Shown here: piece by piece, positions 19,639-44,162 of the stretch
Position numbering within the stretch: the stretch's first letter is position 1
Layout of the letters: every line of letters starts with the position of its first letter
Source of the DNA: a virus
Direction: 5' to 3' (one strand)
Virus record (IMG/VR): IMGVR_UViG_3300020159_002019
Span: 45,291-109,290 of that record
Length of the DNA: 64,000 nt
Position numbers and translations under genes: made by a program
The notes under the pieces: model-generated
The model's database searches: none
Told to the model about the DNA's origin: nothing
What the model saw: only the letters and a program-made list of their open reading frames with translations

Positions 19639-22600
19639 ATGAGTAACTCTAATATCAAATTAACAGACGAAGCAAAAATACAAATTGCCAAATTATTAGG
19701 TTTTGATATATCACCTGATAAAATGGATGATTACCATCAAATACTTGATGACGCTATTAGAAAAACTGCGTTATTAAATATAAATAATGTTAAGAATCTT
19801 GTCCCTACTGGATTGGAAAATCCTGTTGGTGATCCTTTAATTGAGACACAAATACAAACGCAAAAAAACGAAGTAACCAAAAACATTCAACCAAATGATT
19901 TGGTTGCTTATCACGGAAGAAATGTTATTGACGATTTATTTGATATAGTTGAAGATTTACCTACAAGAAATAACGTAAATCAAATTAAAACAACTTTAAT
20001 TGATGATAACGCTATTACAGATCCTCAACTTAGAGGGGATATAAAAAATCAAAAAAACCAAATACTTAAAAACTTATCTGAAGCCGATGCGTTACAATAT
20101 CTTAATTCAGGTCCAAGACAATATAATGCATTATTTGATGACTTACAAACTGATGGTGCGGTTGCAAATGTTTTAAGAAACGTAATTAATTCTAAGTTAG
20201 ATGATTTTATTGAACCAACAAAAACTTATTTATTAACTAAAAACTTAGAAATACCTGAGTTTATTAATAGATATGGCGCTGGATTATTCCAAAATATTTT
20301 AATAAAAGACTTATCAAACGCCGATACAGGTAGTATAGATTTCTTTATTGATTATGTGACACAAGTTCAAATAGGTAGAGCGTCATTTTTAGGTAATTTA
20401 ATGGTGAATAATACCCCAGGTGTTGATTTAATATCTAACAATCAAATTGAATTAACGAATAAGGGTAAGGATGCTAAAAAATATATAAAATACACAACAA
20501 AAGATGTTGGTAAAGATGTTGATTTAGATAGGATAAGACAAGTTCCTGATACAACAGGTAGTGATGAATACCCTGTTGATGGTTATTTTGTAATTGGAGA
20601 ACAAGGAAATTATAATTTTTCAGATCAAATAAACAAGTTTTCAAGTGTAGAAAGAACTCAGGTTGATATTCAAAACGATATTCAATTACCTAATGAAAGA
20701 ACACTTGATGGTTATTTAATAAATCTTGGTGAGCCAACTAATTCTGCTGGCGAATCTTTAACTCCTTTCATTGGACAAACACAATTCACTAAAAACGATT
20801 TAAGTTACGGTTTCAATGCTAATGGTGGGTCAGAATTACCTGCAACATTTAATTTAATAACTGATTTAGCTTCGGATGGATTACCATTATCTGTTCAAGG
20901 GGATTCTGAATTAGGTAAGGGTGGTTATATATTCTTAAAACAAACAATATTAAATAGGATTGATAGGGCTCAAACAAAAGAACTTGAGGGTAGGTATGGT
21001 AACGTAACTGACGCTATGGACGATCCTTTAGGTGCTGGTGTGGCGTTATTAAAAGGACAAGCACCACCATTTACTTTAAGTTATGATATTACAACATTAC
21101 CAGGATTTTTAACGGCATTTGATGTCGCTAGAAGATTATCAGGTATTGATTTGGGTATAAGCCCTATCCCTGAAGAAAATATTGCGAGTAGTGTGGTAAC
21201 TACTATTAAAAATGGTATAAATACCTTATTTGGTAGAAATATATTTGGTGGTGATATAACTGAATGTGATACTAATAATAGTGAATTAGTTCCTCCACAT
21301 ATCCCAAGAAATAAAACATTATTGAGATATACAAGTTCAGGTCAATTATTTAAGATGTATAATACTTTATCTTACAATAAATTTACCCCTGAATGGTTGA
21401 GAGATCCTGATACATTAGACATATTTGGAAAATTAGTACCAAAACCAAAATCTAATTTATATATTGATAGTGAAAGAAGTTATAGTGTATTTCAGAAAAT
21501 TGGTGGTATATTAGGATTACCTGTTAAAGAACCTGATTCTAATTACGTGATTGATAATACTGACCCTGTAAGATTAAATGACAGTCCAAGAAATAGTGGT
21601 TTAGGTAGTGGTAAATTAAGTGATGATTTTGTAGAATATGATAGTAATGCTGATGGTGCGGTTAAAGGTGGTAGAATTAATACTATTGCTATAAGGGCTG
21701 GAGAATCAACTGACGATATTTATTGGGAATCAAAGACTCCGTTAAGAGATAACGCTTCCTTTGCAAATCCATATGTTACGAATTATGGTCCATTTTATGA
21801 CGATAAACAAAATTGGCTTGTTCCATATTTTTCAAAAGATTATAGTTTTAATGGTGATAGTATTTTATGTGGAACACAAGCTTTGGCTAATAGAGATGAT
21901 ATTATAGGCGATGTTGTAAGAAACTCAACTAGAAGTTTAAGAGGTATGTCTAAGGGTAATGCCGTTAAATGGCCTAATAATGAAACAAATAAAAAGTTTT
22001 GTAGGGTATGGACAAAAGATAATAACTATAATCAAATAAGTGATTTAGTTAGAAAAGGTTATAGAGGTTATGGTAGAGGTTTAATGACTGATACGAAATA
22101 TACTACATTAGATAAGAATGGTATTCCGATAATAGCCCCAACTAAACAAAACTCAATTATAGATGAATATGGTGAAGGGACACTTGATCCAACAATAGCT
22201 AAGAGATATATGTTATCAATTGAAAACTTAGCTTGGAGAGGTGCTAAGGTATTTTTACCTTGTGGTGAAGTTGGACCTAATGGTGGTAGAATTATGTGGT
22301 TTCCGCCGTATAATATATCATTTAGTGATAATACTACTGTTAATTGGACTACGAATGAATTTGTTGGTAGGCCTGAACCAATATATACATATAATAATTC
22401 ATCAAGAAGCGGTTCTTTAGGATTTAAGATTGTTGTGGATCATCCATCCATTGTAAATCATTTTAATAGTAGTATTTATAACGAGGATAATTACGGTACA
22501 AAACCTGGTGAATTAGAAGCTTTTTTCGCTGATTGTGTCAATTACCCAATTGAAGATTTATTAGAAAAATATAAACAATTCTCTAGTGATGAAATAAATA

Positions 22601-31243: not shown

Positions 31244-32191
31244 ATGGATTATTCACTTATTACAGATTTAGTTGTTTCAATATTTGGAAACATTAAAAAA
31301 ACTTATCACGGAAACTCACAAGTAACCGTTGATTGTCCTTTGTGTTCCGCCGATAAAGGTGTTGAATATGATGGGAAAGGAAACCTTGAAATAAACCTTG
31401 AACAAGGATTATCTCATTGTTGGTCTTGCGAAAGAACACCCGGAACAATTGATGGACTTATTAAAAAGTTCGGAAATAAACCCCAATATAAGACATTTAA
31501 AGTTATTGCCCCTGAATATGATTACCAAATCAATAAAAGAAAATATACTAAAAAAGATAATAACATTACGGAGTTTCCAAAAGAATTTATCCCGTTCTCA
31601 ACAATAAATAAAAGAAACTATATCCACCTTCAACCATATAATTACATTATATCGAGAGGTTATACAGATGAATTATTAAAGGAATATAATATAGGGTTTT
31701 GTTTAGAAGGGAAATATAAACAAAGAATAGTAATACCATTATACGATAAGAAAGGTAATATTATTTATTTCTCAACCAGGTCATATACAGGTGCTAAACA
31801 AAAATATCTAAATCCTGATACAGATAAAGATGATTTAATATTTAATGAAAATAGAATTGATTGGGAAAAACCATTATATATTACAGAAGGTGTATTTGAT
31901 GGATTACCAATACCTAACCATTTCTTATTATTAGGGAAATCATTATCGGAGTTTAAATGGAAAACAATATATGATAACGCTAAATCGGATATTGTAATTG
32001 CTTTAGATCCTGACGCTAAAGAACAGACGTATAGAATGTATCAGAAGTTAAATGCTGGTAAATTAAGGAATAAAGTATTTGTATTACAATATACCGATGA
32101 TAGGGATTTAGGTAAATTATTTGAAAATAAAAAAGATTTTAACGATACGATATTGAATTACAGATATTTAAGTGAATTTGAAATAATTTAA
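31244..32191 (+). CDS. DNA primase (Zn-finger + TOPRIM)
   Basis: CPLC...HCWSC; RIVIP; KYLNP; ITEGVFD; ALDPD. Confidence 0.85.
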   Translation: MDYSLITDLVVSIFGNIKKTYHGNSQVTVDCPLCSADKGVEYDGKGNLEINLEQGLSHCWSCERTPGTIDGLIKKFGNKPQYKTFKVIAPEYDYQINKRKYTKKDNNITEFPKEFIPFSTINKRNYIHLQPYNYIISRGYTDELLKEYNIGFCLEGKYKQRIVIPLYDKKGNIIYFSTRSYTGAKQKYLNPDTDKDDLIFNENRIDWEKPLYITEGVFDGLPIPNHFLLLGKSLSEFKWKTIYDNAKSDIVIALDPDAKEQTYRMYQKLNAGKLRNKVFVLQYTDDRDLGKLFENKKDFNDTILNYRYLSEFEII

Positions 32192-32291
32192 TTTAAAAAA
32201 CATTTGGAAGTATAAAAAATTATATTACCTTTGTGGTATGAAAAATTAATTACATATTTAATGGTAATTATTTAAAAAAAATAAAAAAAAG

Positions 32292-32322
32292 TTTGACAAT
32301 TAAAAAAAAAGTAGTATCTTTG
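32292..32322 (+). promoter_or_regulatory. Bacteroidota-type primary-sigma promoter for tRNA operon 1
   Basis: TTTG-N19-TATCTTTG; a second copy (TTTG-N19-TACCTTTG) at 32203-32233. Confidence 0.75.
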
Positions 32323-32368
32323 TATCACAAATAAGAAAAACATACTATTTATTAGTAAGAAAATATAT

Positions 32369-32441
32369 CGTGGAGTAGTAGCAGTGGTAGCTCGCAAGGC
32401 TCATAACCTTGAGGTCGGTGGTTCGAATCCATCCTCCGCAA
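32369..32441 (+). tRNA. tRNA-fMet (CAT), initiator
   Basis: Cloverleaf, caagg-ctcataa-ccttg, C1:A72 mismatch. Confidence 0.9.
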
Positions 32442-32479
32442 CAATTTAAAAAAAGTAAAACAATTAAAAAAAAAAGATT

Positions 32480-32557
32480 ATGACAACAATTATTAACATA
32501 TTTGAATTTAACGTGATTGAGGATAGAAGCCTCGGTTTGGGATATCTTTGTGTCTAA
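32480..32557 (+). CDS. Leader peptide 1 (MTTIINIFEFNVIEDRSLGLGYLCV), putative attenuator peptide
   Basis: Ile/Phe/Glu/Asp-rich; contains GGTTTGGG complementary to the terminator 5' arm. Confidence 0.7.
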   Translation: MTTIINIFEFNVIEDRSLGLGYLCV

Positions 32558-32584
32558 TAATGTGTAGTTAGAATGAATTAAAAG

Positions 32585-32615
32585 AAACCCAAACCTAATA
32601 AGTTTGGGTTTTTTT
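32585..32615 (+). terminator. Attenuator terminator 1
   Basis: aaacccaaac-ctaataa-gtttgggttt plus T-tract, directly before tRNA-Asp. Confidence 0.8.
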
Positions 32616-32640
32616 GTTTTATATTGTTATTTGAAAATAC

Positions 32641-32716
32641 GGTTCATAGGTCAAATGGTTAAGATATCTCCCTGTCACGGAGTATGGAGCGGGTTCGATT
32701 CCCGTATGAACCGCCA
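32641..32716 (+). tRNA. tRNA-Asp (GTC)
   Basis: ctcc-ctgtcac-ggag; GGTTCGATT; encoded CCA. Confidence 0.9.
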
Positions 32717-32722
32717 AAATAG

Positions 32723-32799
32723 GGTATCAGGGGCTGCTGGGTGTGGCTACTTGACTGTCACTCAAGAAAAACAGGTGGGTTCGAATCCCATTGGTACCG
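32723..32799 (+). tRNA. tRNA-Asp (GTC), second divergent copy
   Basis: cttga-ctgtcac-tcaag; GGTTCGAATCC. Confidence 0.8.
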
Positions 32800-32810
32800 C
32801 AAAAATAAAT

Positions 32811-32884
32811 GTTCCGTTGGACAAATTGGTTAAGTCGTTTCCCTTTCAAGGAAAAGATTGCGGGTTCAAATCCCGTACGGAATA
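32811..32884 (+). tRNA. tRNA-Glu (TTC)
   Basis: tttcc-ctttcaa-ggaaa. Confidence 0.9.
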
Positions 32885-32891
32885 CAAAAAT

Positions 32892-32964
32892 GGGTTTATA
32901 GTGAAATTGGTGATCACGCATCCCTGATAAGGATGTATTATAGGTTCAAATCCTATTAGACCTA
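32892..32964 (+). tRNA. tRNA-Ile (GAT)
   Basis: catcc-ctgataa-ggatg. Confidence 0.85.
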
Positions 32965-32970
32965 CAATAT

Positions 32971-33043
32971 GGTGCAGTGGCAGATAAGGTTATTGCGGCG
33001 GACTGAAAATCCGTAGGAGTCGGATCGTTACCGACCTGCACCA
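32971..33043 (+). tRNA. tRNA-Phe (GAA)
   Basis: gcgga-ctgaaaa-tccgt; variant T-loop. Confidence 0.85.
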
Positions 33044-33052
33044 CAATAATAT

Positions 33053-33126
33053 ACTACCATAGCTCAATTGGTGAGAGCAGGATGCTTATACCATCAAGGT
33101 TGTCGGTTCAAATCCGGTTGGTAGTA
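33053..33126 (+). tRNA. tRNA-Ile (TAT)
   Basis: gatg-cttatac-catc; canonical D and T arms. Confidence 0.8.
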
Positions 33127-33131
33127 CAAAT

Positions 33132-33202
33132 GGGATAAAAGCACATAAGGATGTGCAGACCCTAAACAGGGTAAGGATTGGGTTCGAATCCCAGATATTC
33201 CA
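33132..33202 (+). tRNA. tRNA-like element with shortened anticodon loop (undetermined)
   Basis: D stem gcac/gtgc and T arm GGTTCGAATCC present; accct-aaac-agggt gives only a 4-6 nt loop. Confidence 0.55.
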
Positions 33203-33220
33203 CAAAAAAATTAAAAAAAG

Positions 33221-33251
33221 TTTGGAAATAATAAAAAAAGGAGTATCTTTG
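33221..33251 (+). promoter_or_regulatory. Bacteroidota-type promoter (near-leaderless mRNA)
   Basis: TTTG-N19-TATCTTTG, 4 nt before ATG. Confidence 0.7.
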
Positions 33252-33255
33252 TAGT

Positions 33256-34113
33256 ATGGCAAAAATAGAAACATTAAAAGCAAAATTCCCTAATATAACC
33301 GAACAAACATTTATTCGTTTATTTGAGGGTGACAAGACATCTACTAAAAAGTATGCTGAATTTTTACTTTCCGCTTGGAATAGAAAAGGGACAAATTATG
33401 GTGGTTTAAGGGGTGTTGATGACTATATTAAATTGGTTGAGAATTTTGAGAAATTAACCCCTTATATTGATAATAAGGATATATACTCTTATGGAGATAT
33501 TCAATCAATAGTTGGTGTTGTTAAAATAGCTGAAGCCGAAAAAAATGAAAAATCTTTTGATAAAGATGAACACATTTCAGTTATTGAAGAAACTGAAGAT
33601 TATATCTTTTTGATACCTAAAACACACGTTGGTTCATTAAAATATGGTTCTAATACTAAATGGTGCACAGCGGCATCAACAAGTCCTGGAACTTTTAAAT
33701 CATATATTGATAGAGGTTTTTTAGCTTATTTAGTTGATAAGAAAAATAAAAAGACGAATAATCAAAATAAATTGGCTTTTTATTTTACAAATAAAGAAAA
33801 CTTACTTACACAAGTAATCCAAATCTTTAATCAATTAGATTCACTTGTAAATGAAAACCAAGTAATACAGAGTGGTTGGGATATTATGTTATTGAGTAAT
33901 CTTATAACTAAATTGAGGGTTTTCTTATTTGAGTTTAAGGAGAAAGAAAAAGTTAGGGTTGAAGTATCTAAAACAATTCAACAATTGAATCAAATCAATT
34001 ACGATAACTTCTTTAATGCTTTAAATACGTTAAAGATAAATCCTGAGAATGTTGAAGAATTGAAAAACGCTTTAGGGTTAGTTAAAACTTCAATGAAAAA
34101 AATCAAAGTATGA
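33256..34113 (+). CDS. Hypothetical protein, YG-x-x-(T/S)KWC repeat family
   Basis: GSLKYGSNTKWCTA motif shared with three other ORFs. Confidence 0.6.
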   Translation: MAKIETLKAKFPNITEQTFIRLFEGDKTSTKKYAEFLLSAWNRKGTNYGGLRGVDDYIKLVENFEKLTPYIDNKDIYSYGDIQSIVGVVKIAEAEKNEKSFDKDEHISVIEETEDYIFLIPKTHVGSLKYGSNTKWCTAASTSPGTFKSYIDRGFLAYLVDKKNKKTNNQNKLAFYFTNKENLLTQVIQIFNQLDSLVNENQVIQSGWDIMLLSNLITKLRVFLFEFKEKEKVRVEVSKTIQQLNQINYDNFFNALNTLKINPENVEELKNALGLVKTSMKKIKV

Positions 34114-34460
34114 GGAGTGTAAAACAAATCAAAAAGTTAAGATATACTAATGATTGGGTGTCAAATGTTGATGATTCAAATATAACTTATCGTCTTTTTA
34201 CTTATAATGGTTTAACTTGGAATGTTATTTTAACTAACCGACAAGAATTAGGTGGTTGGACAATAAGGTTATGTAATAATGATGGTGATGAATTATACAT
34301 TTTTAATTCAGGTGTGAATAGAATGTCCATATCAATAAATGACGATTTAATTTACGAATTAGATGGTTGGTATTATGAAAATATAACTGAATTGAAGAAT
34401 AGGTTAGAAAACGATTTAATCGTATTATTAAGGAAATATGAGGAGTATATCAAAAATTAG
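34110..34460 (+). CDS. Hypothetical protein
   Basis: 116-aa ORF, ATGA-coupled. Confidence 0.5.
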   Translation: MRSVKQIKKLRYTNDWVSNVDDSNITYRLFTYNGLTWNVILTNRQELGGWTIRLCNNDGDELYIFNSGVNRMSISINDDLIYELDGWYYENITELKNRLENDLIVLLRKYEEYIKN

Positions 34461-34770
34461 GGTAAGTGTAAAACAAGATTTTCAAGAATGGTTGGAAAAA
34501 ACTACCATTAGTAGATGGATGCCAAGACATAGAATAATATGTAATGATGGGTTTTCTATGTCAGTTCAGGGTGGTGAGTTTACATATTCAAACCCAAGAC
34601 AATTTGGTAGTAGTTTTACTGAAATGGAGATTGGGTTTCCTTCTGAGTATGAAGAATTGATTAGTAGTTATTCTGACTCTAATGAATATACTCAAACTGT
34701 TTATCCATATGTCCCAGTAAGTTTAATTATTGAAGTGATTGAAAAACACGGAGGAATAAAAAAAGATTAG
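34438..34770 (+). CDS. Hypothetical phage protein
   Basis: CNDGFSMSVQ...EIGFPS...VYPYVP..IEKHGG. Confidence 0.6.
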   Translation: MRSISKIRVSVKQDFQEWLEKTTISRWMPRHRIICNDGFSMSVQGGEFTYSNPRQFGSSFTEMEIGFPSEYEELISSYSDSNEYTQTVYPYVPVSLIIEVIEKHGGIKKD

Positions 34771-34787
34771 AAAAAAATAAAAAAAGA

Positions 34788-34818
34788 TTTGACAAGTTAA
34801 AAAAAAATGTTATCTTTG
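34788..34818 (+). promoter_or_regulatory. Bacteroidota-type promoter for tRNA operon 2
   Basis: TTTG-N19-TATCTTTG. Confidence 0.75.
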
Positions 34819-34897
34819 TATAACAAATGGGATATGAAAATATTTTTTAGATTTCCTTGACAAAAACAAAAAAACAAACTATTTATAAATTAAAGAT

Positions 34898-35008
34898 ATG
34901 AAAAACACGAATAAAAATATGACTATGGTTGTGAAAGCAACGGCAAAAGGTGGGAATAGAAATACCACACTTGGTTTAGGGCGTGTTATGTCTTTAATGG
35001 ATAGATAA
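34898..35008 (+). CDS. Leader peptide 2 (MKNTNKNMTMVVKATAKGGNRNTTLGLGRVMSLMDR), putative attenuator peptide
   Basis: First 24 residues are all K/N/T/M/V/A/G/R; contains GGTTTAGGG antiterminator. Confidence 0.75.
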   Translation: MKNTNKNMTMVVKATAKGGNRNTTLGLGRVMSLMDR

Positions 35009-35032
35009 TACAATAATATAAAAAGATATATT

Positions 35033-35069
35033 AAAAACCCTGAACCATAAAAAAGTTCAGGGTTTTTTT
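35033..35069 (+). terminator. Attenuator terminator 2
   Basis: aaaaaccctgaac-cataaaaaa-gttcagggttttttt, directly before tRNA-Thr. Confidence 0.8.
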
Positions 35070-35077
35070 ATTTATAA

Positions 35078-35149
35078 TCCAGATTAGTTTAATTGGGAAA
35101 ACACGTCTCTTGTAAAGATGAAAAGTTGGTTCGAATCCGACATTTGGAT
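35078..35149 (+). tRNA. tRNA-Thr (TGT)
   Basis: cgtct-cttgtaa-agatg; GGTTCGAATCC. Confidence 0.85.
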
Positions 35150-35255
35150 CAAAGAAAATAGTAAAAAATTAATTAAAAATATGAAACGAAAACAGTAGGG
35201 TGTATGATCAATTAGGAATAGGTTGCATACACTAAAAATTAAAAAAAATGTATAT

Positions 35256-35343
35256 GCACCTATGGCTTAATTGGTAGAGCAACCGGCTTTTAACCGGTGG
35301 GGTAGACGAAAGTCCGTTGAAGGTTCGAGTCCTTCTGGGTGCA
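35256..35343 (+). tRNA. tRNA-Lys (TTT) with long variable arm
   Basis: accgg-cttttaa-ccggt; extra gac-gaaa-gtc hairpin. Confidence 0.8.
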
Positions 35344-35349
35344 CAATTT

Positions 35350-35422
35350 ACTTTCGTAGCTTAATTGGTAAAGAAACTAACTCTTAATTAGTGTGATGTG
35401 AGTTCGAGTCTCACTGGAAGTA
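35350..35422 (+). tRNA. tRNA-Lys (CTT)
   Basis: actaa-ctcttaa-ttagt. Confidence 0.8.
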
Positions 35423-35449
35423 CTAAATGTTATTTGAAATATTATAAAT

Positions 35450-35522
35450 TGGGATGTAACTCAGAGGCTAGAGTGTTTGCCTGTTAAGCAAAAAGTCGAG
35501 ATATCGTAATTCTCCATCCCAG
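35450..35522 (+). tRNA. tRNA-Asn (GTT)
   Basis: tttgc-ctgttaa-gcaaa; atypical T-loop. Confidence 0.75.
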
Positions 35523-35583
35523 CAAAAATTGAAAGATAAACGTATGAAACAAAGGAATGTAGTGGTTTATTAAGTAAATATAT

Positions 35584-35655
35584 GGCTCTATCGTTTAACG
35601 CATAAGACATTTCTCTTCTAAAGAAAGAATAGGGGTTGGATTCCCTTTAGAGCCA
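35584..35655 (+). tRNA. tRNA-Arg (TCT)
   Basis: tttct-cttctaa-agaaa. Confidence 0.8.
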
Positions 35656-35659
35656 CAGC

Positions 35660-35687
35660 AATCCAAGTTCGATTCTTGGTGGGAGTA
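35660..35687 (+). pseudogene. Orphan tRNA 3' half (T arm + acceptor strand)
   Basis: ccaag-ttcgatt-cttgg-tgggagta with no matching 5' half. Confidence 0.55.
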
Positions 35688-35696
35688 CAAAAAAAT

Positions 35697-35767
35697 ACCT
35701 TCTTAGTTAAATGGGAGAATATCTGTTTTACATACAGAAGATAACTGTTCGATTCAGTTAGGGGGTA
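35697..35767 (+). tRNA. tRNA-Val (TAC)
   Basis: tctgt-tttacat-acaga. Confidence 0.8.
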
Positions 35768-35819
35768 CAAAAAAAGATTTGATTTTTTAAAAAAAATTAT
35801 TATCTTTAAAAAACAATAT

Positions 35820-35892
35820 GGGGTTATGGTATAGTTGGCGAACACAGTAGCTTTGCAAGCTTCAGTCCCGAGTTCAAATCTCGGTAGCTCCA
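35820..35892 (+). tRNA. tRNA-Ala (TGC)
   Basis: agc-tttgcaa-gct; G3:U70 pair. Confidence 0.85.
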
Positions 35893-35895
35893 CAA

Positions 35896-35965
35896 TGTTT
35901 CACTTAGAATAAAAACAAACGCTTAATAGCAACAAACTCTTAATTTGTCAATTATTAGTGAAACA
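35896..35965 (+). repeat. CACTTAGAATAA stem element, copy 1
   Basis: Closing stem tgtttcact/agtgaaaca. Confidence 0.6.
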
Positions 35966-35968
35966 AAT

Positions 35969-36039
35969 GTCGATATAGTTAAATGGGATAACACCCCTCT
36001 CATCAAGGGAAGTTATTGGTTCGAATCCAGTTATCGATA
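35969..36039 (+). tRNA. tRNA-Met (CAT), elongator (Ile2 not excluded)
   Basis: ccct-ctcatca-aggg; GGTTCGAATCC. Confidence 0.75.
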
Positions 36040-36050
36040 CCCTGAAATAA

Positions 36051-36127
36051 TATTTCACTTAGAATAAAAAACTATTTGAATTTATCCTCCAATGGAGGGT
36101 GTATTTAATCCAATTAATAGTGAAATA
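36051..36127 (+). repeat. CACTTAGAATAA stem element, copy 2
   Basis: Closing stem tatttcact/agtgaaata; internal cctcc/ggagg hairpin. Confidence 0.6.
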
Positions 36128-36130
36128 AAT

Positions 36131-36203
36131 GCGGGTGTAGCTCAATTGGTAGAGCGCGACCTTGCCAAGGTCGAGGCTGTGGGATCGTACCCCATCACCC
36201 GCT
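36131..36203 (+). tRNA. tRNA-Gly (GCC)
   Basis: cgacc-ttgccaa-ggtcg. Confidence 0.9.
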
Positions 36204-36206
36204 CAT

Positions 36207-36412
36207 TGAGTAAGAGGTACTCAGTAGTCTTTAATCCAAGACTCATTTAACAATGGATTCGCTTAAATCGGACAGCGAAAATGCCGGTTCTTAGGAATAA
36301 GGAGCGAAGCACACCTCCCCTTCGTAGTGTGACTATTTTTAATGGGGATGCCCTTCAGGTTTTTGGAAAGAAGAAAACCGAAATGACTACTCACCTAAAT
36401 CTCAAGGTGGGG
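36207..36412 (+). ncRNA. Candidate structured ncRNA between the two tRNA-Gly genes
   Basis: GC-richer than genome; several hairpins, a long-range stem and two possible pseudoknots. Confidence 0.45.
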
Positions 36413-36419
36413 TAAACAA

Positions 36420-36491
36420 GCGAGTATCGTATAATGGCTATTATACCACGCTTCCAACGTGGGGATGTGATTTCGATTATCACTACTCGCT
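36420..36491 (+). tRNA. tRNA-Gly (TCC)
   Basis: ccacg-cttccaa-cgtgg. Confidence 0.85.
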
Positions 36492-36520
36492 CCGGACGTT
36501 TTAGAAATCAGTAATATTTT

Positions 36521-36552
36521 TTTGGTATTACTGATTTTTTTTATTACCTTTG
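36521..36552 (+). promoter_or_regulatory. Bacteroidota-type promoter
   Basis: TTTG-N20-TACCTTTG. Confidence 0.65.
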
Positions 36553-36568
36553 TAGAAATAATAAAATT

Positions 36569-37018
36569 ATGACACTTAAAGAACAAATTCAAAAAGACTT
36601 CATCACGGCTATGAAAAATAAAGATGAATGGACTAAATCCGCTCTAAGTGGGTTAAAATCAAAGATTACTGAAGCTGAAAAAGTTAATGGAACAGAATTA
36701 TCAGACGCTGATATTCTTAAACTAATTAATAAAGGTATTAAACAAAGGGAAGAATCTGCTACTATATATAGTGAAGCAGGTCGTCCGGAATTAGCTGCGA
36801 AAGAATTACTTGAACTTAATGTTTTAATGGATTATATGCCAGCTCAAATGACTGATGAGGAAATTGAAACGGCTGTAAGGGAAATTATTGTTGGATTACC
36901 TACAATGACAAACGCAAATGCCTTGTCAGGAAAAACTATGGGTGAATTCAATAAAAAGTATCAAGGAATGGCTGATTCTAAAAGAGTTTCAGAAATTATA
37001 AAAAAAGTTGTATCATAA
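36569..37018 (+). CDS. GatB/YqeY domain protein
   Basis: MTLKEQIQKDFITAMKNKD...KQREESATIYSEAGRPELA.KE..EL.VL..YMPAQM. Confidence 0.9.
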   Translation: MTLKEQIQKDFITAMKNKDEWTKSALSGLKSKITEAEKVNGTELSDADILKLINKGIKQREESATIYSEAGRPELAAKELLELNVLMDYMPAQMTDEEIETAVREIIVGLPTMTNANALSGKTMGEFNKKYQGMADSKRVSEIIKKVVS

Positions 37019-37062
37019 TTTGACTTTCAATAAACAATAAACTATAATTAAAAAACAAAAAT

Positions 37063-37173
37063 GGGGGGTAATTTTTTAGTGGATTGAAAATACCACTTAG
37101 AATAACTCTAAACTATATTGGTAAAAGTTTGACTAATAATCAAATATAGAAGGTTCGAACCCTTCACCCCCCG
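37063..37173 (+). ncRNA. tRNA-like RNA (AAT loop) with ~40-nt insertion carrying CACTTAGAATAA copy 3
   Basis: ggggggt/acccccc acceptor, tttga-ctaataa-tcaaa arm, gaagg-ttcgaac-ccttc T arm. Confidence 0.6.
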
Positions 37174-37203
37174 CAATTATTAACAATATAAAACATAAAG
37201 TAT

Positions 37204-39042
37204 ATGACAGAATTAGTAAAAGAAAAAATGAAGTTATCTAACACATTAGATACATTACAATTTTTAAGAACCGCTAAAGGTGCTTCAGATGAAAAAATTC
37301 ATTTGGCTTTAGATAAAGCCTATGCTGAAACAACATCTAATGGAGTTGAGGAAATGTTATATAGAATTATGTTTCATATTGGAGATATTTCAAGAAAGCA
37401 TAATATCTTTAAAGAATTTGAAATCAACTCAGAAGTGGGTGGGGCTCAAGAAAGAAAGATATTTAGATCTTGTGTAAGATGGATGCAAAAGAACACCCCA
37501 GAGTTCTTGCATAACAACTTAAAGTTAGTAGTTGAATATACTTCATACGAAACTTTAATGTATTACCAAGTAAGCACAAACAGATATTTGGGTAATGTTA
37601 TGGGTGTTGAAAAACTATTCATTGACAACCAATATTTGTTCCCTTTCTTAAAGTCTGAGATTGAATCAGGTGTAAACTTGAACTTAATCGCAAGACACTT
37701 ACCTAAATATGCTACAGGTAAGCAAAGAACAACTAAAAAGACTTTAGTTGGTAAAAGGGGAAGAACTGAATTCAGTTGGACATTACCGAAAGGTAAGACT
37801 TGGGTTAAAATCAATGGAAACCTTGTAAATGGTGATAAAATCACGGTTAAGCATGGTGATGTTGCTGAATACCCAAGAGAAAAGAAATCTGAGTCTTTAA
37901 CAAGACAAAGTTTCTTAAACAAGTGGATTAAGGATTTCTGTGATTATATGAAATGGACAATCGCTGATTACAAAGCATTTAAGGGTAAGCAGAATACTGC
38001 TGAACAAAAAATGTCAAGTGGTTCAGTAATGTCTATGACAGAAGATCAATTTAATGGTTTCTTGGATTCTTTGACTGCGGGACAAAGAAAAAGGGTTGTA
38101 AAATCATTGGGTAATCCTAAATGGGGACAGCTAACTAAATGGTATAAGGCTTGGGAAGATGACCAATCTAACTTAGCTGAAAAAATTAGAAAAGCTACCA
38201 CACCTGCTGAAAAAGCCGCTTTGATGAAAGATTTCAAAGTTAAAACAACAGGGGATCAAACAATTGATTTGTTGGCTGAAATGCTTGGTAAGGGTTTAAA
38301 TGCTCAACAAGTAAATAACAACTATCAATCAATGATTGAGAGAATGAACATTAAACATTCAGTATTTCCAATTATTGACGGTTCGGGTTCTATGGATAGT
38401 ACTTTTGACCATAACGGTGTAGGAATATCTAACAGACAAGTAGCATACGCAATGGCAATTGCATTTACTACAATGAATCCAAACCCAAGATTTAGAAATA
38501 CTTATGGTTGGTTCTCAAACGACTTTAAGGTTTTTGGTAGGTCTGAGTATGGTGATACCTATATATCTATGTTTAAGAATGTGGATAAGTATGTAAGTCA
38601 TACAAAGACTTTTACTGAGAATTACAGATTACTTATGGAGACAGATCCAAAAGAAATTACATCTACAAATATGTTTGCTTCGGTAGAATATTTTGTAAAT
38701 CTTGTGAAAACAGGAAGATGTACTATGGAAGAATTACCTGAAACATTACTTTATCTTACAGATAATGAGTATAATTCAGGTAAATCACCAAAAGAAGCGG
38801 TTACTTTAGCCAATTCAATTGGATGGAGACCAAAGTTAATTTTTTGGGGTATTACCACAATGACTCATTCTATTAAGGAAGAGTTAAAATATACTCCGAA
38901 TGGTTTATTCATCGGTGGTTTCAACGAAAGTTGTTTATCACAAATCTTGGATGGAATCTCAAAAGATTCAATAAATCCAGAAGATGAATTGTGGGCTATT
39001 TATAACGATATTCGTTATAGTGTAATTAAAGTAGGTGAATAA
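37204..39042 (+). CDS. DUF2828/TROVE-like protein with C-terminal vWA domain
   Basis: GGAQERKIFR N-terminal motif; IIDGSGSM MIDAS; STNM; LLYLTDNEYN; PKLIFW. Confidence 0.65.
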   Translation: MTELVKEKMKLSNTLDTLQFLRTAKGASDEKIHLALDKAYAETTSNGVEEMLYRIMFHIGDISRKHNIFKEFEINSEVGGAQERKIFRSCVRWMQKNTPEFLHNNLKLVVEYTSYETLMYYQVSTNRYLGNVMGVEKLFIDNQYLFPFLKSEIESGVNLNLIARHLPKYATGKQRTTKKTLVGKRGRTEFSWTLPKGKTWVKINGNLVNGDKITVKHGDVAEYPREKKSESLTRQSFLNKWIKDFCDYMKWTIADYKAFKGKQNTAEQKMSSGSVMSMTEDQFNGFLDSLTAGQRKRVVKSLGNPKWGQLTKWYKAWEDDQSNLAEKIRKATTPAEKAALMKDFKVKTTGDQTIDLLAEMLGKGLNAQQVNNNYQSMIERMNIKHSVFPIIDGSGSMDSTFDHNGVGISNRQVAYAMAIAFTTMNPNPRFRNTYGWFSNDFKVFGRSEYGDTYISMFKNVDKYVSHTKTFTENYRLLMETDPKEITSTNMFASVEYFVNLVKTGRCTMEELPETLLYLTDNEYNSGKSPKEAVTLANSIGWRPKLIFWGITTMTHSIKEELKYTPNGLFIGGFNESCLSQILDGISKDSINPEDELWAIYNDIRYSVIKVGE

Positions 39043-39053
39043 CCTACTTTTTT
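39028..39053. terminator. Bidirectional terminator
   Basis: aaagtaggt/acctacttt between convergent genes. Confidence 0.65.
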
Positions 39054-39271
39054 TATGCCTTTATTTTAACCACAACCTCACCTTCATTATTAGTGGTTAG
39101 ATAATATTCTTTTTTGTTTGTAAATCCATATTTTTTAGATATGTTTGATTCTATCCTTTTTTTGGTTGATGGTGTGTTAGCAAATGTAATATGTGGTTGA
39201 ACATATTCATCTTTGAATTGTTCCATTTTATTTACCGTTTCTTTAATAATTCTCTTAATTAAATTTTTCAT
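39053..39271 (-). CDS. Small hypothetical protein
   Basis: MKNLIKRIIKE N-terminus; TATTTAT motif upstream on minus strand. Confidence 0.55.
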   Translation of the reverse strand: MKNLIKRIIKETVNKMEQFKDEYVQPHITFANTPSTKKRIESNISKKYGFTNKKEYYLTTNNEGEVVVKIKA

Positions 39272-39338
39272 ATAAATAAATATTTGGTTTTATGAAAACT
39301 ATTATTTATATTTGTATTGTAATTAAAAAATAAAATAT

Positions 39339-40004
39339 ATGTATAATAACAAAACAGATTTTAACAAATTCGCAACATCGCATATGGGTATATCGTCTTT
39401 ATACCTCGATGATCTTCAATCGTCAATGACACCTCACATCTTAGAAGAAAGACCGACAAGAGCAAATCTTATGTCAGTATTTGATAGATTGATGCAAGAT
39501 AGGATTATTTGGGTTGCCGGTGCGGTTGATGAGGGTATGTCACAAGTTATTCAAGCGCAATTGATTTACTTGTCAAACTCAGACCCTAAGAAAGAAATTA
39601 CGATGCACATTGACACTCCTGGTGGTTCAGTAAAGGCTGGATTATCAATCGTGGATGTAATGGATTATGTTAAACCTGACATTAGAACAATCAATACAGG
39701 TATGGCGGCATCAATGGGTTCAGTATTGTTAGGCGCTGGAACCAAAGGAAAAAGAATGTCTTTAAGATTTTCACAAACAATGCTACACCAATCTTCAGGT
39801 GGTGTGAGAGGAAATATTCAGGATGCTAGGATAACAATGATTGAATGGGAAAAAATAAATGATTTGTTATTTAATTTGTTAGGTGGGTATTGTGGTAAGG
39901 ATGCTATCCAAGTAAAAGAAGATGCTTCTCGTGATTTATGGTTAAGTTCTGAAGAAGCGTTGGCTTATGGGATAATTGACGAAATAATCAAACCAAAAAA
40001 ATAA
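39339..40004 (+). CDS. clpP: ATP-dependent Clp protease proteolytic subunit
   Basis: DTPGGSV, GMAASMGSVLL (catalytic Ser), MLHQ, RDLWLSSEEALAYGIID. Confidence 0.95.
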   Translation: MYNNKTDFNKFATSHMGISSLYLDDLQSSMTPHILEERPTRANLMSVFDRLMQDRIIWVAGAVDEGMSQVIQAQLIYLSNSDPKKEITMHIDTPGGSVKAGLSIVDVMDYVKPDIRTINTGMAASMGSVLLGAGTKGKRMSLRFSQTMLHQSSGGVRGNIQDARITMIEWEKINDLLFNLLGGYCGKDAIQVKEDASRDLWLSSEEALAYGIIDEIIKPKK

Positions 40005-40015
40005 TTAAAAAAAAG

Positions 40016-40046
40016 TTTGACAATTAGAAAAAAAATATTATCTTTG
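40016..40046 (+). promoter_or_regulatory. Bacteroidota-type promoter for tRNA operon 3
   Basis: TTTG-N19-TATCTTTG. Confidence 0.75.
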
Positions 40047-40121
40047 TATTATAAATGGGATGTGAAAAATATTTTTCACATTTCCATAACAAAAACAAAA
40101 AAACAAACTATTTAATATAAA

Positions 40122-40256
40122 ATGAAAACATTAATTAACATATCATTATCGTCATTGTATCTATTACAGTCGCTATGCCAAAGTTGTGTTTCGGTATTAC
40201 CGTTACATCAGTATTGGTTAGTGCTAGGATTTAGTGCGGTGGGTATGTTAAGTTGA
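40122..40256 (+). CDS. Leader peptide 3 (MKTLINISLSSLYLLQSLCQSCVSVLPLHQYWLVLGFSAVGMLS), putative attenuator peptide
   Basis: 24 of residues 8-33 are S/L/Y/Q/C/P/H/W; contains GGATTTAG antiterminator. Confidence 0.75.
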   Translation: MKTLINISLSSLYLLQSLCQSCVSVLPLHQYWLVLGFSAVGMLS

Positions 40257-40278
40257 TAAGACAATAATATACCTTATT

Positions 40279-40320
40279 AAACCCCCTAAATCCGTATAAA
40301 TGAGATTTAGGGGGTTTTTT
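40279..40320 (+). terminator. Attenuator terminator 3
   Basis: aaaccccctaaatc...gatttagggggtttttt, before tRNA-Pro. Confidence 0.8.
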
Positions 40321-40354
40321 ATTTTAGTTATTTGACATATTGTATTAGAAATAT

Positions 40355-40427
40355 CAGGGTGTATATCAATTGGGAGATTACTCCATTTGGATTGGAGAGG
40401 TTGTAGGTTCGAGTCCTATCACCCTGA
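40355..40427 (+). tRNA. tRNA-Pro (TGG)
   Basis: ctcca-tttggat-tggag. Confidence 0.85.
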
Positions 40428-40434
40428 CAAATAT

Positions 40435-40505
40435 TCCCCTTTCGTCTAACGGCAGGACAGATGGTTTTGAGCTATCGAATCGAGGTTCGAATCCTTGAGG
40501 GGGAA
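40435..40505 (+). tRNA. tRNA-Gln (TTG)
   Basis: gatgg-ttttgag-ctatc; U1:A72. Confidence 0.85.
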
Positions 40506-40557
40506 CCGGTTTGGGTTTTACACTTTTAAACTTACGAGATAAGGAAAAAGTGAAATT

Positions 40558-40628
40558 GGGATGATGCCGAGAGTGGTCAGACGGTCTGTAAAACCGAACT
40601 GCATAGTGTTTGAGTCACTTCCATCCCA
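40558..40628 (+). tRNA. tRNA-Tyr (GTA), atypical with short variable region
   Basis: cggt-ctgtaaa-accg; degenerate D and T arms. Confidence 0.65.
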
Positions 40629-40638
40629 CAAAATAAAC

Positions 40639-40712
40639 GTAAGTGTAGTGAACAATGGCTAACACGTTCGGTTCCAACCCGAAAGATGTGGGTTCGACCC
40701 CTACCACTTGCG
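40639..40712 (+). tRNA. tRNA-Trp (CCA)
   Basis: ttcgg-ttccaac-ccgaa; G73. Confidence 0.85.
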
Positions 40713-40719
40713 CAAATAA

Positions 40720-40814
40720 GGAGAGGTGCTAGAGATGGATTATTGGGCTAGTCTTGAAAACTAGAGATCGTCAGTGATGGGGATCCGTGGGTTCGAATCC
40801 CACTCTCTCCTCCA
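40720..40814 (+). tRNA. tRNA-Ser (TGA)
   Basis: ctagt-cttgaaa-actag; long variable arm; CCA. Confidence 0.9.
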
Positions 40815-40819
40815 AATAT

Positions 40820-40898
40820 GGGTTTGTTGGTGTTAATTGGATGAGCATTTACGATTGTGGCTCGTAAGGTGAGGGGTTCGAATCCCCCATAAACCCCA
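40820..40898 (+). tRNA. tRNA-His (GTG)
   Basis: tacga-ttgtggc-tcgta; G-1:C73. Confidence 0.85.
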
Positions 40899-40978
40899 AA
40901 AGTAAGGAATTAGGTTATTATACGTAGGCTCCGAGTGTAATAACTGAAATTTAGATCCTTATGAACTTCGGTCCGCAG

Positions 40979-41066
40979 GGAGAATTGACAGAGTGGTAAT
41001 GTATCGGTTTGCTAATCCGTAGTCTATGTAAAAGTAGCGGGGGCTCGAATCCCTCATTCTCCGCCA
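40979..41066 (+). tRNA. tRNA-Ser (GCT)
   Basis: ttgctaa loop; long variable arm; G73 then CCA. Confidence 0.8.
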
Positions 41067-41075
41067 AAAATAAAT

Positions 41076-41164
41076 GCTTCTGTGGCGAAATTGGTAGCAC
41101 GCGATGGACTTAAAATCCATTGGGAAATAACAGTACCGTGTCGGTTCGATTCCGACCAGAAGTA
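41076..41164 (+). tRNA. tRNA-Leu (TAA)
   Basis: atgga-cttaaaa-tccat; long variable arm. Confidence 0.9.
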
Positions 41165-41171
41165 CAAACAT

Positions 41172-41257
41172 ACCCCAATGTTGGAATGTAGACAACCTAG
41201 TTTTAGAAACTAGTGTGAAGTAATAGTAGCGTCTGGGTTCAAATCCCAGTTGGGGTA
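41172..41257 (+). tRNA. tRNA-Leu (TAG)
   Basis: ctagt-tttagaa-actag; long variable arm. Confidence 0.85.
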
Positions 41258-41263
41258 CAAAAT

Positions 41264-41351
41264 GGGAATGTGGTGTGAGTGGTTGAAACCGGGGGTCTGC
41301 AAAACCCCAAAAACGAAAGTTTTCACGTCAGTTCGAATCTGATCATTCCCT
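41264..41351 (+). tRNA. tRNA-Cys (GCA) with long variable arm
   Basis: ggggt-ctgcaaa-acccc; aaaac-gaaa-gtttt extra arm; U73. Confidence 0.8.
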
Positions 41352-41360
41352 CAATTACAT

Positions 41361-41433
41361 GACCCCATAGTTCAATGGATTAGAATACTTGAATACGGAT
41401 CAGGAGATGAGAGTTCAAATCTTTCTGGGGTTA
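41361..41433 (+). tRNA. tRNA-Arg (ACG)
   Basis: cttga-atacgga-tcagg. Confidence 0.8.
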
Positions 41434-41440
41434 CAAAAAG

Positions 41441-41466
41441 AAAACCATTTTTATATGGTTTTTTTT
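41441..41466 (+). terminator. Terminator ending tRNA operon 3
   Basis: aaaaccat/atggtttt plus T-tract. Confidence 0.6.
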
Positions 41467-41489
41467 ATGCCATTACATATTTATTACAT

Positions 41490-44162
41490 ATGATTATTAT
41501 TGAAGGAAAATTAGAAGATTTATCTAAGAAATATATACCGAAGTTTAATAGGGATTCATTTACTGAAGGTTTAACCCCTGAATCTGTTATTGAGCATTTA
41601 TATGTTTCAGATCCATCACCAACAAAGAAATACTTTGAGTGGATGATTAAAGAATGTTTGGGATTGATAGAACGTAATTATGTTATTAACAATGAAAAAA
41701 TAGCTAAACTTGTAACGGATATCCAAGAATTTGATAGAAATATTGATAAACTTAGTCAGGATTTTTTAGATTATAATAAAGAAGAAATTGGTGAAATTGC
41801 GTATAAGTTTTTAAATGGTAAGGCTTTAAAAGATATTGGTACATATAATTACGATATTTTAAGAAAAATAATACCTTCATTGGTAGAATATAAGACAGAA
41901 AGTCAAAGAAGAAGATTGGCTAAAGAAGGTGCTAAAATTATATTTCAAGATGAAAAATATGATGTTTATGAAATAGATACTTATGACGCTTCTTGTTTTT
42001 ATGGTCAAGGTTCTAAATGGTGTACAACTTATAAACAAAGTGATTCACATTTTAAATCATATGGTACTGGTAGGAATAAATTATTATATGTTATTAGTAA
42101 AACTAAGACAAAAGAAACTGATCCTCAATTTTATAAGATTGCTATAAATATAAGGTATGTTGATGAACAAATAACATTTTGGGATGCTCCTGATAATAGT
42201 TTTAATGGTTGGAAATATTTTAGGGAACAAGATCCAAATATTTTAACTTTTTTGATTTCTTATATTAAAGAAAAGAATCCTGAAGGATATCTTAAAATGA
42301 TACCTGAAAACTATTTAATAACGATTAAACAAGAAGAAGAAGGTTTAAGTGATTTAAATATTATTTCGGTTTTAGATGTTGATAAATCTAGTGATTGGTT
42401 AAGTCATAAATATGGGTTAAATGGTGTGGATACTATTATTAAAAAATTGGATATATTACAAGGTAATGTCAGTAATTTTTTAGGTGATTATTTTACCAGT
42501 GATGAAAAAGAGTATTTAATCATAAAAAGAAGTGAGAAATTAGAACCAAGAGGTTTGTCGTGGAAAGATTTAGTTAAAAGTTATCACCAATTAGCAATTA
42601 CTCTAGATAGCTATCAACCAAGTTGGTTTATTGATAATTTTTTAGGTGGGGATAAAAACAAAGCGTTAGAAATTGGGACAAAAGAACCGATAGTACTATA
42701 TTGGTTGGCTAGAGGTAGTGTTAATATAAAGGATTTGGGTGATTTATATGGAGCTGAAAAACTTGTTAAATATATTACTAAAAGTAAAGTTAAAGTTATT
42801 TTTGGGTTAAGTGATATATTGGGTGGTTTATTTACAAATGAAACTCCAAAGAAAAGAAAGGAGTTATATGAAATTGCTTATAAGTATGATGGCAAAAAAA
42901 GGAATATTGAATTAGTCGATTATTTGTCTAGACGTATGGGTAAAGAGGGATTCATTGCGTCATTTAATAAAGGTGATGGATATGGAATTGAACCTGATTC
43001 ATATGGAAGAGCATTTTTATATGTTAAAAATAATAACCCTGATTTAATAAGTAATGTATTTAACATTGAGGATATTAGTAAAATCTTCAAGTCAAACGAA
43101 AAAGCGTTTACTTATTTATTAAAAAATTATGATGAATTTACACGTAATTTAGATATTAGTGATTTAACTGAAATGTTTAGTGGTGATGTTCCTGATAGTA
43201 TATATGGTAAATATATGAGTGATTGGGAAAAGAGGAATGTTGCGTCAATATATAGAATGAAAAATGGTTCTGAAAAACTATTTGATTTTGTTCTTAAAAA
43301 GTTTTCTTTTAAAAAGTTAGCCGATATCATCGGATATGATGGAGTATTTCAATTATTTTCTATTGTTAAGTTTAAAAAAGGTATAAACTATATGATTGAA
43401 AATAAGGTTGGCGATATCGCTATTGATGATATAAAAATAAAAGATGGTAAGGTGGTATTGGTTGTTAATGATAGAACGGATTATGCGTTTTTATTTGATG
43501 ATGAAGATTTGGCTAAAACTATATTGGGTGAAGATATGGATTGGGAACCGTATAACGATACTATTTATAATTGGTATGATCAAGTATGGGATTGTATGGT
43601 ACCAAAATCAATTGAACTGGTTAAGTCTTGGATTAAAAGTAATATAACAGATTATGAGAATGATGAAGGTGAAAAAATTGATTTAGGTGATACATATTTA
43701 AATGAAATAGATGATGATGATTTGGGTAAAATAATAGATGAGTACGATGAATTTAGGGATTTAAAAAATGAGATGAGTTGGGCTTATGATAATGGTTATA
43801 ATTCTGTTGCTCAAAGTGATATTATTAGTAAAACACAAGATCAATTAGAAGAATATTTAGGTAGTTATATAGGGTATGAACCAGTTAAAAAGAATGGTCG
43901 TAGATATAATAAAGAAACAGGTAATTCTGAATCATACGAATATACAGCATATGAATACTTATATAATGTGGGTGATGGTTTATATGATATATTATATGAT
44001 TATGCAACTACTAATTGGGGTCATTCGGTTGATTACAACACATATTTTAGCACTTTATTAAAGGATTCTGACCCTAAAAAGTTATATATTGATACTGAGG
44101 CTTATCCAGACGATAAAGAAATTTGTGAGTATTTTAATGATGATTTACCGGAAAGAATATGA
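41490..44162 (+). CDS. Large hypothetical protein, YG-KWC family with acidic C-terminal domain
   Basis: DPSPTKKYFEW; ASCFYGQGSKWCTT. Confidence 0.6.
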   Translation: MIIIEGKLEDLSKKYIPKFNRDSFTEGLTPESVIEHLYVSDPSPTKKYFEWMIKECLGLIERNYVINNEKIAKLVTDIQEFDRNIDKLSQDFLDYNKEEIGEIAYKFLNGKALKDIGTYNYDILRKIIPSLVEYKTESQRRRLAKEGAKIIFQDEKYDVYEIDTYDASCFYGQGSKWCTTYKQSDSHFKSYGTGRNKLLYVISKTKTKETDPQFYKIAINIRYVDEQITFWDAPDNSFNGWKYFREQDPNILTFLISYIKEKNPEGYLKMIPENYLITIKQEEEGLSDLNIISVLDVDKSSDWLSHKYGLNGVDTIIKKLDILQGNVSNFLGDYFTSDEKEYLIIKRSEKLEPRGLSWKDLVKSYHQLAITLDSYQPSWFIDNFLGGDKNKALEIGTKEPIVLYWLARGSVNIKDLGDLYGAEKLVKYITKSKVKVIFGLSDILGGLFTNETPKKRKELYEIAYKYDGKKRNIELVDYLSRRMGKEGFIASFNKGDGYGIEPDSYGRAFLYVKNNNPDLISNVFNIEDISKIFKSNEKAFTYLLKNYDEFTRNLDISDLTEMFSGDVPDSIYGKYMSDWEKRNVASIYRMKNGSEKLFDFVLKKFSFKKLADIIGYDGVFQLFSIVKFKKGINYMIENKVGDIAIDDIKIKDGKVVLVVNDRTDYAFLFDDEDLAKTILGEDMDWEPYNDTIYNWYDQVWDCMVPKSIELVKSWIKSNITDYENDEGEKIDLGDTYLNEIDDDDLGKIIDEYDEFRDLKNEMSWAYDNGYNSVAQSDIISKTQDQLEEYLGSYIGYEPVKKNGRRYNKETGNSESYEYTAYEYLYNVGDGLYDILYDYATTNWGHSVDYNTYFSTLLKDSDPKKLYIDTEAYPDDKEICEYFNDDLPERI

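Follow-up and report, generated by a model that had tools for sequence, protein, structure and literature searches.

We analysed a 64,000-nucleotide stretch of viral DNA (the window), the 3' 64 kb of the 109,290-bp IMG/VR virus record IMGVR_UViG_3300020159_002019 (29% G+C), and focused on a short open reading frame (ORF) at 40122-40256, a candidate attenuator leader that lies between a promoter motif and an array of tRNA genes. CheckV puts the completeness of the record at 34%, and the whole phage would therefore be roughly 320 kb. ARAGORN identifies 27 tRNA genes in the record, all of them within three same-strand arrays in the window. The arrays belong to three units of the same layout, each composed of a Bacteroidota-type promoter, a short ORF, an intrinsic terminator and tRNAs. 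We number the units and their arrays 1 to 3 and call the leader ORFs L1, L2 and L3; the ORF at 40122-40256 is L3.

Unit 3 (40016-41466) lies on the plus strand, as do units 1 and 2 further upstream. A promoter motif match (40016-40046; TTTG, 19 nt, TAtcTTTG) precedes L3, which has 44 codons and ends in TGA followed by TAA. Codons 8-33 (40143-40220) form a putative sensing run, of which 24 of 26 codons can be decoded by array 3 tRNAs, and the 3' part of the ORF holds the 5' strand of a predicted antiterminator (40221-40250). The intrinsic terminator (40282-40320) consists of a 5' arm (40282-40292) and a 3' arm (40304-40314), which form a G+C-rich stem of 11 bp (-19.1 kcal/mol), and a T-run. After a further 35 nt comes array 3 (40355-41434), and a hairpin with a T-run, read from the sequence at 41441-41466, ends the tRNA operon.

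Array 3 contains Pro, Gln, a Tyr-like element, Trp, Ser, His, Ser, Leu, Leu, Cys and Arg(ACG). An earlier note on this DNA had listed the same content with a tRNA-Tyr; ARAGORN and Rfam agree on Pro, Gln, Trp, two Ser, His, two Leu, Cys and Arg(ACG), including Ser(TGA), Ser(GCT), Leu(TAA) and Leu(TAG), but not on Tyr.

Unit 2 (34788-36493) comprises a promoter (34788-34818), a leader ORF (34898-35008), a terminator (about 35036-35072) and array 2 (35078-36493), with tRNAs Thr, Lys, Lys, Asn, Arg(TCT), Val, Ala, Met, Gly and Gly. Unit 1 (32292-33127) likewise has a promoter (32292-32322), a leader ORF (32480-32557), a terminator (about 32586-32620) and array 1 (32641-33127), with Asp, Asp, Glu, Ile, Phe and Ile. 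The motif TTTG-N17-21-TAnnTTTG has 12 matches in the window against 4.07 expected, a count reached in none of 100 shuffles, and one such match lies ahead of each of the three leaders. Sigma-70-type promoters, which we also considered, were not enriched (38 against 46.9 expected), in contrast to the Bacteroidota-type motif. Only 20 nt (unit 1), 8 nt (unit 2) and 35 nt (unit 3) separate the end of the T-run from the first tRNA, and we did not find the promoter motif in the terminator-to-tRNA gap of any of the three units. Because of this, the tRNAs appear reachable only by read-through of the terminators.

Leader codons and their own tRNA arrays

Translation of L3 bore out the codon usage described in the earlier note. 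Residues 8-33 are drawn at 24 of 26 positions from Ser, Leu, Tyr, Gln, Cys, Pro, His and Trp, the two exceptions being Val; the run uses the Leu codons TTA, TTG and CTA and the Ser codons TCA, TCG and AGT, and an Arg codon is absent from the leader. In L2, all of the first 24 codons belong to the set of array 2; Arg is encoded by AGA, and GGT and GGG are both present, matching the two Gly tRNAs. Codons 4-15 of L1 fall in the set of array 1 at 9 of 12 positions, including ATA for Ile(TAT).

We scored every ATG-initiated ORF of 15-81 codons in the record (n = 739) by its best segment within a given array's set. L3 ranks first for the array 3 set with a score of 20.5 (the runner-up, an off-frame ORF, scores 14.7), and L2 ranks first for the array 2 set with 17.0 (runner-up, 8.5). 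By comparison, the best segment in 30,690 amino acids of long ORFs scores 11.2 for the set of L3. The match is specific to each leader's own array: L3 has 24 of 26 codons decoded by its own array and at most 2 by the others, L2 has 21-24 of 24 against at most 3, and L1 has 9 of 12 against at most 3. As negative controls we used 41 unrelated viral loci, carrying about 70 tRNA arrays, obtained from a tRNA-Pro fragment search; the best upstream-ORF scores there were at most 6.6, apart from one of 12.0. We attribute that case, a Leu/Met/Thr-containing start before a Leu-Thr-Met array (L142, L170 and L174), to chance, as it lies inside a coding gene and has no terminator. A fourth ORF of the MTTIIN type, at record position 20582, was also rejected, being antisense to a gene and having no terminator.

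Close relatives from lake and other metagenomes (L001/L007, L009/L133, L010, L131 and the partial L129) carry the same units. Among GenBank phages we found no near relative, matches being limited to ClpP and tRNA fragments. Between two subgroups of relatives the 5' half of the L3 run has been rewritten, and 8 of the 9 residue changes stay within the set, some of them non-conservative. In the L001 leader, Arg replaces Cys, and its codon, CGC, belongs to the class read by the Arg(ACG) of the array; in L010 a CTT codon occurs in the leader together with an extra tRNA-Leu(AAG). A single clean deletion in L009 (2757-2886) and L133 has removed leader 2 along with eight tRNAs, Thr through Met, so that the promoter is followed immediately by the two Gly tRNAs.

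Leaders 1 and 3 begin alike, with MKT[LI]INI, and a DNA pattern for this heptapeptide retrieved seven more leader-terminator-tRNA units from other viral contigs (L183, L184, L186, L191, L192, L195 and L197); an eighth extra unit, with a different start, lies in L195. Beyond the heptapeptide, the composition of each leader in this wider family follows the amino acids of the array behind it. One has an Ala/Val/Thr/Met/Arg/Gly/Asp/Ile/Phe run ahead of Ala, Ile, Gly, Met, Asp, Thr, Val, Arg(TCT), Tyr, Asn and Phe tRNAs, and another has a Leu/Phe/Asp/Cys/Val run ahead of Cys, Val, four Leu, two Phe and Asp tRNAs. With arrays permuted among leaders, none of 200,000 trials reached the observed total when ten pairs were included; when the test was confined to the seven pairs from outside the window, 661 of 200,000 trials did so. 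The earlier note had proposed checking whether codons change together with tRNA content in homologs; across the seven other leader-array pairs, which come from six phage contigs, they do.

An ordinary protein-coding role would account for some of these features. The small ORFs would then be small-protein genes, L3 encoding a membrane peptide, with constitutive terminators after them; the arrays would be expressed by leak-through or from unrecognised promoters, and the codon match would have no regulatory meaning. L3 is indeed hydrophobic enough for a membrane helix, terminators are common after small genes, and the terminators here are strongly favoured at equilibrium. However, among sister leaders of this layout, L2 is hydrophilic and that of L184 acidic, so that the peptides share no common property, and a protein homology search with the L3 peptide found no homologue. 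Conservation among leaders is limited to the first seven residues, and the remainder varies with the array. The earlier note would have been undermined by a membrane peptide conserved regardless of tRNA content, which is not what we found, given that conservation stops at residue seven and that the sisters of L3 are hydrophilic or acidic in character. The 8-35 nt between T-run and tRNAs, with no promoter motif, fit poorly with such genes, which also leave the result of 0 in 200,000 permutations unexplained. We consider this explanation highly unlikely.

Predicted switch between terminator and antiterminator

We folded the RNA 3' of the ribosome, ending just before the terminator 3' arm is made. 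Wherever in the run the ribosome is placed, most of the terminator 5' arm is predicted to pair upstream (11 of 12 nucleotides in L3, 9 of 11 in L2 and 8 of 10 in L1); with the ribosome beyond the matched run, the number of paired 5' arm nucleotides drops to 0-2 in all three units. In L3, the predicted upstream pairing holds with the P-site up to codon 32 and not farther. The same ribosome-dependent loss of the predicted antiterminator past the run is seen in 9 of the 10 leaders folded, and the antiterminator fold energies lie 3-4 standard deviations below those of dinucleotide shuffles. The correlation between the end of the run and the position of the switch (r = 0.76) is no better than that with ORF length, and we did not use it as independent evidence.

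The shape of the predicted antiterminator is alike in the three units: a copy of the terminator 3' arm pairs long-range with the 5' arm and encloses one or two local hairpins. In unit 3 the core of this copy, GGATTTAG at 40227-40234, and its partner, CTAAATCC at 40286-40293, lie where the earlier note had placed them, and in unit 1 GGTTTGGG is complementary to CCCAAACC. All 11 terminator pairs of unit 3 are kept in five homologs, with one compensatory change from C-G to T-A, and the core helix of the antiterminator is kept in all five. The within-record control set for terminators comprised 14 sites only. Conservation in the 3' half of L3 extends to synonymous sites, which suggests a constraint at the RNA level.

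The match scores of ten leaders add up to 92.7 in the ATG frame; the two remaining frames, in which stop codons abound, total 24.3 and 24.5. The ATG of each of the ten lies in A-rich sequence, and 49-72 nt separate the end of the ORF from the T-run. These results bear on a second alternative, in which the leader is a translation-independent RNA switch, with tRNAs (as in a T-box) or a protein sensed by the RNA itself and the open frame incidental. Such a switch would sit well with alternative folds that arise in predictions without a ribosome and with the synonymous-site conservation in the 3' half of L3. It does not account for an array match confined to the ATG frame, nor for the shared start context and the spacing to the T-run, and we know of no precedent for direct sensing of 8-10 different tRNAs by one RNA. 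Searches for known RNA families point the same way. A T-box covariance model gave no match at E up to 1 when positions 31500-42000 were searched, and none of the Rfam amino-acid leader families (Thr_leader, His_leader, Trp_leader and the Leu and Phe leaders) or other Rfam cis-regulatory families reached the gathering threshold; Thr_leader matches L1 and L2 weakly (27 and 23 bits against a gathering score of 55) and leaves L3 unmatched. An RNA switch of this kind is extremely unlikely.

Taken together, the promoter, the 35-nt gap, the predicted antiterminator that depends on ribosome position and the frame-specific match support the attenuator proposed in the earlier note. On this sequence evidence, the ORF at 40122-40256 is likely to encode the leader peptide through which a ribosome-mediated transcription attenuator controls array 3, and the same is likely for units 1 and 2.

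In the proposed mechanism, transcription would start from the Bacteroidota-type promoter and the leader would be translated while it is being made. The strand in the 3' part of the ORF (core at 40227-40234) could pair with the terminator 5' arm as an antiterminator. If the 26-codon run is decoded fast, the lead ribosome would cover this strand before the polymerase completes the terminator; the terminator hairpin would then form and transcription would end 35 nt before the tRNAs. If any codon class is slow, with its charged cognate tRNAs scarce, the ribosome would lag, the antiterminator would hold and the polymerase would enter the tRNA genes. The new tRNAs would speed decoding and close the gate, which amounts to negative feedback. 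Candidate triggers are a host tRNA pool ill suited to the codon use of the phage, or depletion of host tRNAs during infection or defence.

Several observations weigh against this interpretation. At equilibrium the terminator is always favoured (p of about 0.9-1.0), and read-through must therefore be kinetic. Shuffled sequences reach equal arm pairing in 33, 149 and 101 of 1000 trials for the three units, and because shuffled upstream sequence pairs with the G+C-rich 5' arm in 3-15% of trials, the pairing of each unit is only moderately significant taken alone. No protector (1:2) hairpin of the trp type is predicted in the folds. Folds that include no ribosome retain the antiterminator in L1 and L3. 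For L2 the outcome depends on where folding begins: the antiterminator appears from the ATG, whereas from the 5' end 0 of 11 arm nucleotides are paired. Because the antiterminator forms without a ribosome and no protector pairing competes, the predicted logic may be on by default and off only if translation keeps pace, unlike that of trp.

Further points of this kind concern the codon match. L1 lies outside the top five small ORFs for its small set, and its match of 9 of 12 is modest. The first seven conserved codons fall in the sets of other arrays, and Arg(ACG) and Lys(CTT) have no codon in their own leaders. In the close relative L001, ATA and TTA persist in the leaders although the tRNAs Ile(TAT), Leu(TAA) and the second Asp are missing, and in L131 a leader contains CTC without a Leu(AAG), a counter-example to the covariation. 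Finally, the Tyr-like element of array 3 (40557-40633) is called a tRNA by neither ARAGORN nor Rfam, because its T-loop (TTTGAGT) is atypical. This element has the anticodon GTA, a tRNA-like fold and a long variable arm; the same variant form fills the Tyr slot of array 3 in L001, and L009 and L131 have a canonical tRNA-Tyr there.

The missing protector and the common start also lend themselves to a third alternative, in which the leader is translated and gates the terminator but reports general translation capacity, such as ribosome availability or global stress, rather than specific tRNA classes. With no protector hairpin, any failure of translation would be predicted to give read-through, and the first seven codons use amino acids of other arrays. 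A gauge of general capacity would have no need of an array-specific composition, yet the leaders track their own arrays both within the genome and across phages. We regard it as very unlikely, and favour attenuation that responds to specific tRNA classes.

Other features of the arrays and their relatives

A tRNA-Met with a C1-A72 mismatch, which is initiator-like, lies at 32369-32442 in unit 1. Because it is located upstream of the gate, between the promoter and leader 1, it would be produced whether the attenuator opens or not. Directly after tRNA-Ile(TAT), at the end of array 1, a weak tRNA-like match (33132-33202; 23.8 bits, below threshold) is possibly a decayed tRNA.

Leaders 2 and 3 have in common a near-perfect hairpin in the 5' untranslated region (UTR), near the expected 5' end of the transcript (34825-34855 and 40052-40080). 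It is kept in L001 and L009 and not in L010 and L131, and a short upstream ATG frame, itself lacking conservation as an ORF, overlaps it. The 5' UTR pattern AAAAAACARACTATTTA was too unspecific as a query, and the contig search with it gave already known contigs only.

Array 2 contains a conserved structured RNA of about 215 nt (36205-36419) between tRNA-Gly(GCC) and tRNA-Gly(TCC). It is also present in L001 and L009, with compensatory changes at 9 of 50 predicted pairs, and has no Rfam match at E up to 1. The tRNA-Lys(TTT) of this array (35256-35344) measures 89 nt, about 14 nt longer than its 75-nt counterpart in L001. Just 5' of tRNA-Ala, a promoter-like sequence (35776-35812; TTTG, then TAtcTTTa) could, by its sequence, express the Ala, Met and both Gly tRNAs independently of the attenuator. 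Genes around the arrays include those for a primase-like protein, a YqeY-like protein and ClpP; the YqeY-like gene (36569-37018; Pfam PF09424, E = 4.9e-38) lies directly 3' of array 2.

On the minus strand of L184, an array starting at 1617 (reverse-strand coordinates) reads Tyr, Asp, Asp, Pro, Gln, Gln, Gln. We found no recognisable leader or terminator upstream of it, and some arrays in these phages are therefore not gated. Insertions occur between attenuator and tRNAs or inside arrays (L191, 1060-1640; L001, 17675-18450), and the L191 insert encodes a Cys/His-rich, HNH-like ORF, suggesting that the inserts are homing elements that target tRNA arrays.

Relation to known systems and significance

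Leader-peptide attenuators are known from the trp, his, leu and pheA operons and other amino-acid operons of enterobacteria, and those of ilvGMEDA and thr are multivalent. For classical attenuators, the race between ribosome and polymerase is described as modelled kinetically in PMC1183508. The units described here resemble the ilvGMEDA/thr type in having a short, codon-enriched leader ORF, an intrinsic terminator, a predicted antiterminator that depends on ribosome position, and several amino acids per leader. Of the hallmarks of such attenuators, we find the ORF between promoter and genes, cognate codons, a terminator and, as a prediction only, an antiterminator that excludes it. They differ from the ilvGMEDA/thr type in that the regulated genes are tRNAs rather than biosynthetic enzymes, in sensing 8-10 amino-acid classes per leader, in lacking a predicted protector (1:2) hairpin, in which they also depart from trp (L1, L3 and, from its ATG, L2 predicting an antiterminator without a ribosome), and in belonging to a virus of Bacteroidota host type. 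The working principle of multivalent leader-peptide attenuation is thus known; what sets these units apart is their target, how many amino acids they sense, the absence of a predicted protector and the fact that they are viral.

Two other systems invite comparison. T-boxes also choose between terminator and antiterminator according to tRNA status, over translation-related genes, and bind one uncharged tRNA directly, without a ribosome or an ORF; here, by contrast, the signal is frame-specific. In Escherichia coli, pheST is controlled by leader-peptide attenuation through pheM, a case like the present one in that a component of the translation apparatus, and not biosynthesis, is regulated. There, the gene under control encodes an aminoacyl-tRNA synthetase, a single amino acid is sensed and the system is cellular, whereas the units here are viral. 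Literature searches found no description of leader-peptide control of tRNA genes.

A functional analogue of a tRNA supply controlled by demand is the trn operon of Anabaena PCC 7120, a supernumerary tRNA array that is off until translation is impaired (PMC8421152, PMC10272220). Control there is by a repressor, the ribbon-helix-helix (RHH) protein TrcR, which acts at direct repeats in the promoter, and the 2021 paper on this operon does not mention a leader, attenuator or terminator (PMC8421152, PMC10272220). We noticed no direct repeats of the TrcR type in 40000-40050, an observation made without a dedicated search for TrcR homologs.

When and why phages use the tRNAs they carry is a long-standing open question. 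Our results indicate that a family of large phages with Bacteroidota-type hosts probably controls its own tRNA supply by demand, with each multivalent leader acting as a decoding speedometer specific to its block and with the initiator tRNA left ungated. If this is true, tRNAs in this lineage are made when the codons that they read are decoded slowly, and the wiring itself states the answer. The phage would top up only the limiting tRNA classes, or replace them after host tRNA depletion or cleavage.

Classical attenuation is known for amino-acid operons and for one synthetase operon; it would be extended to tRNA genes and to viruses, with one leader integrating up to ten codon classes. The promoter-leader-terminator units could serve as natural, modular sensors of codon-specific translation speed, and could be used to probe whether phage tRNA arrays respond to host defences that deplete tRNAs.

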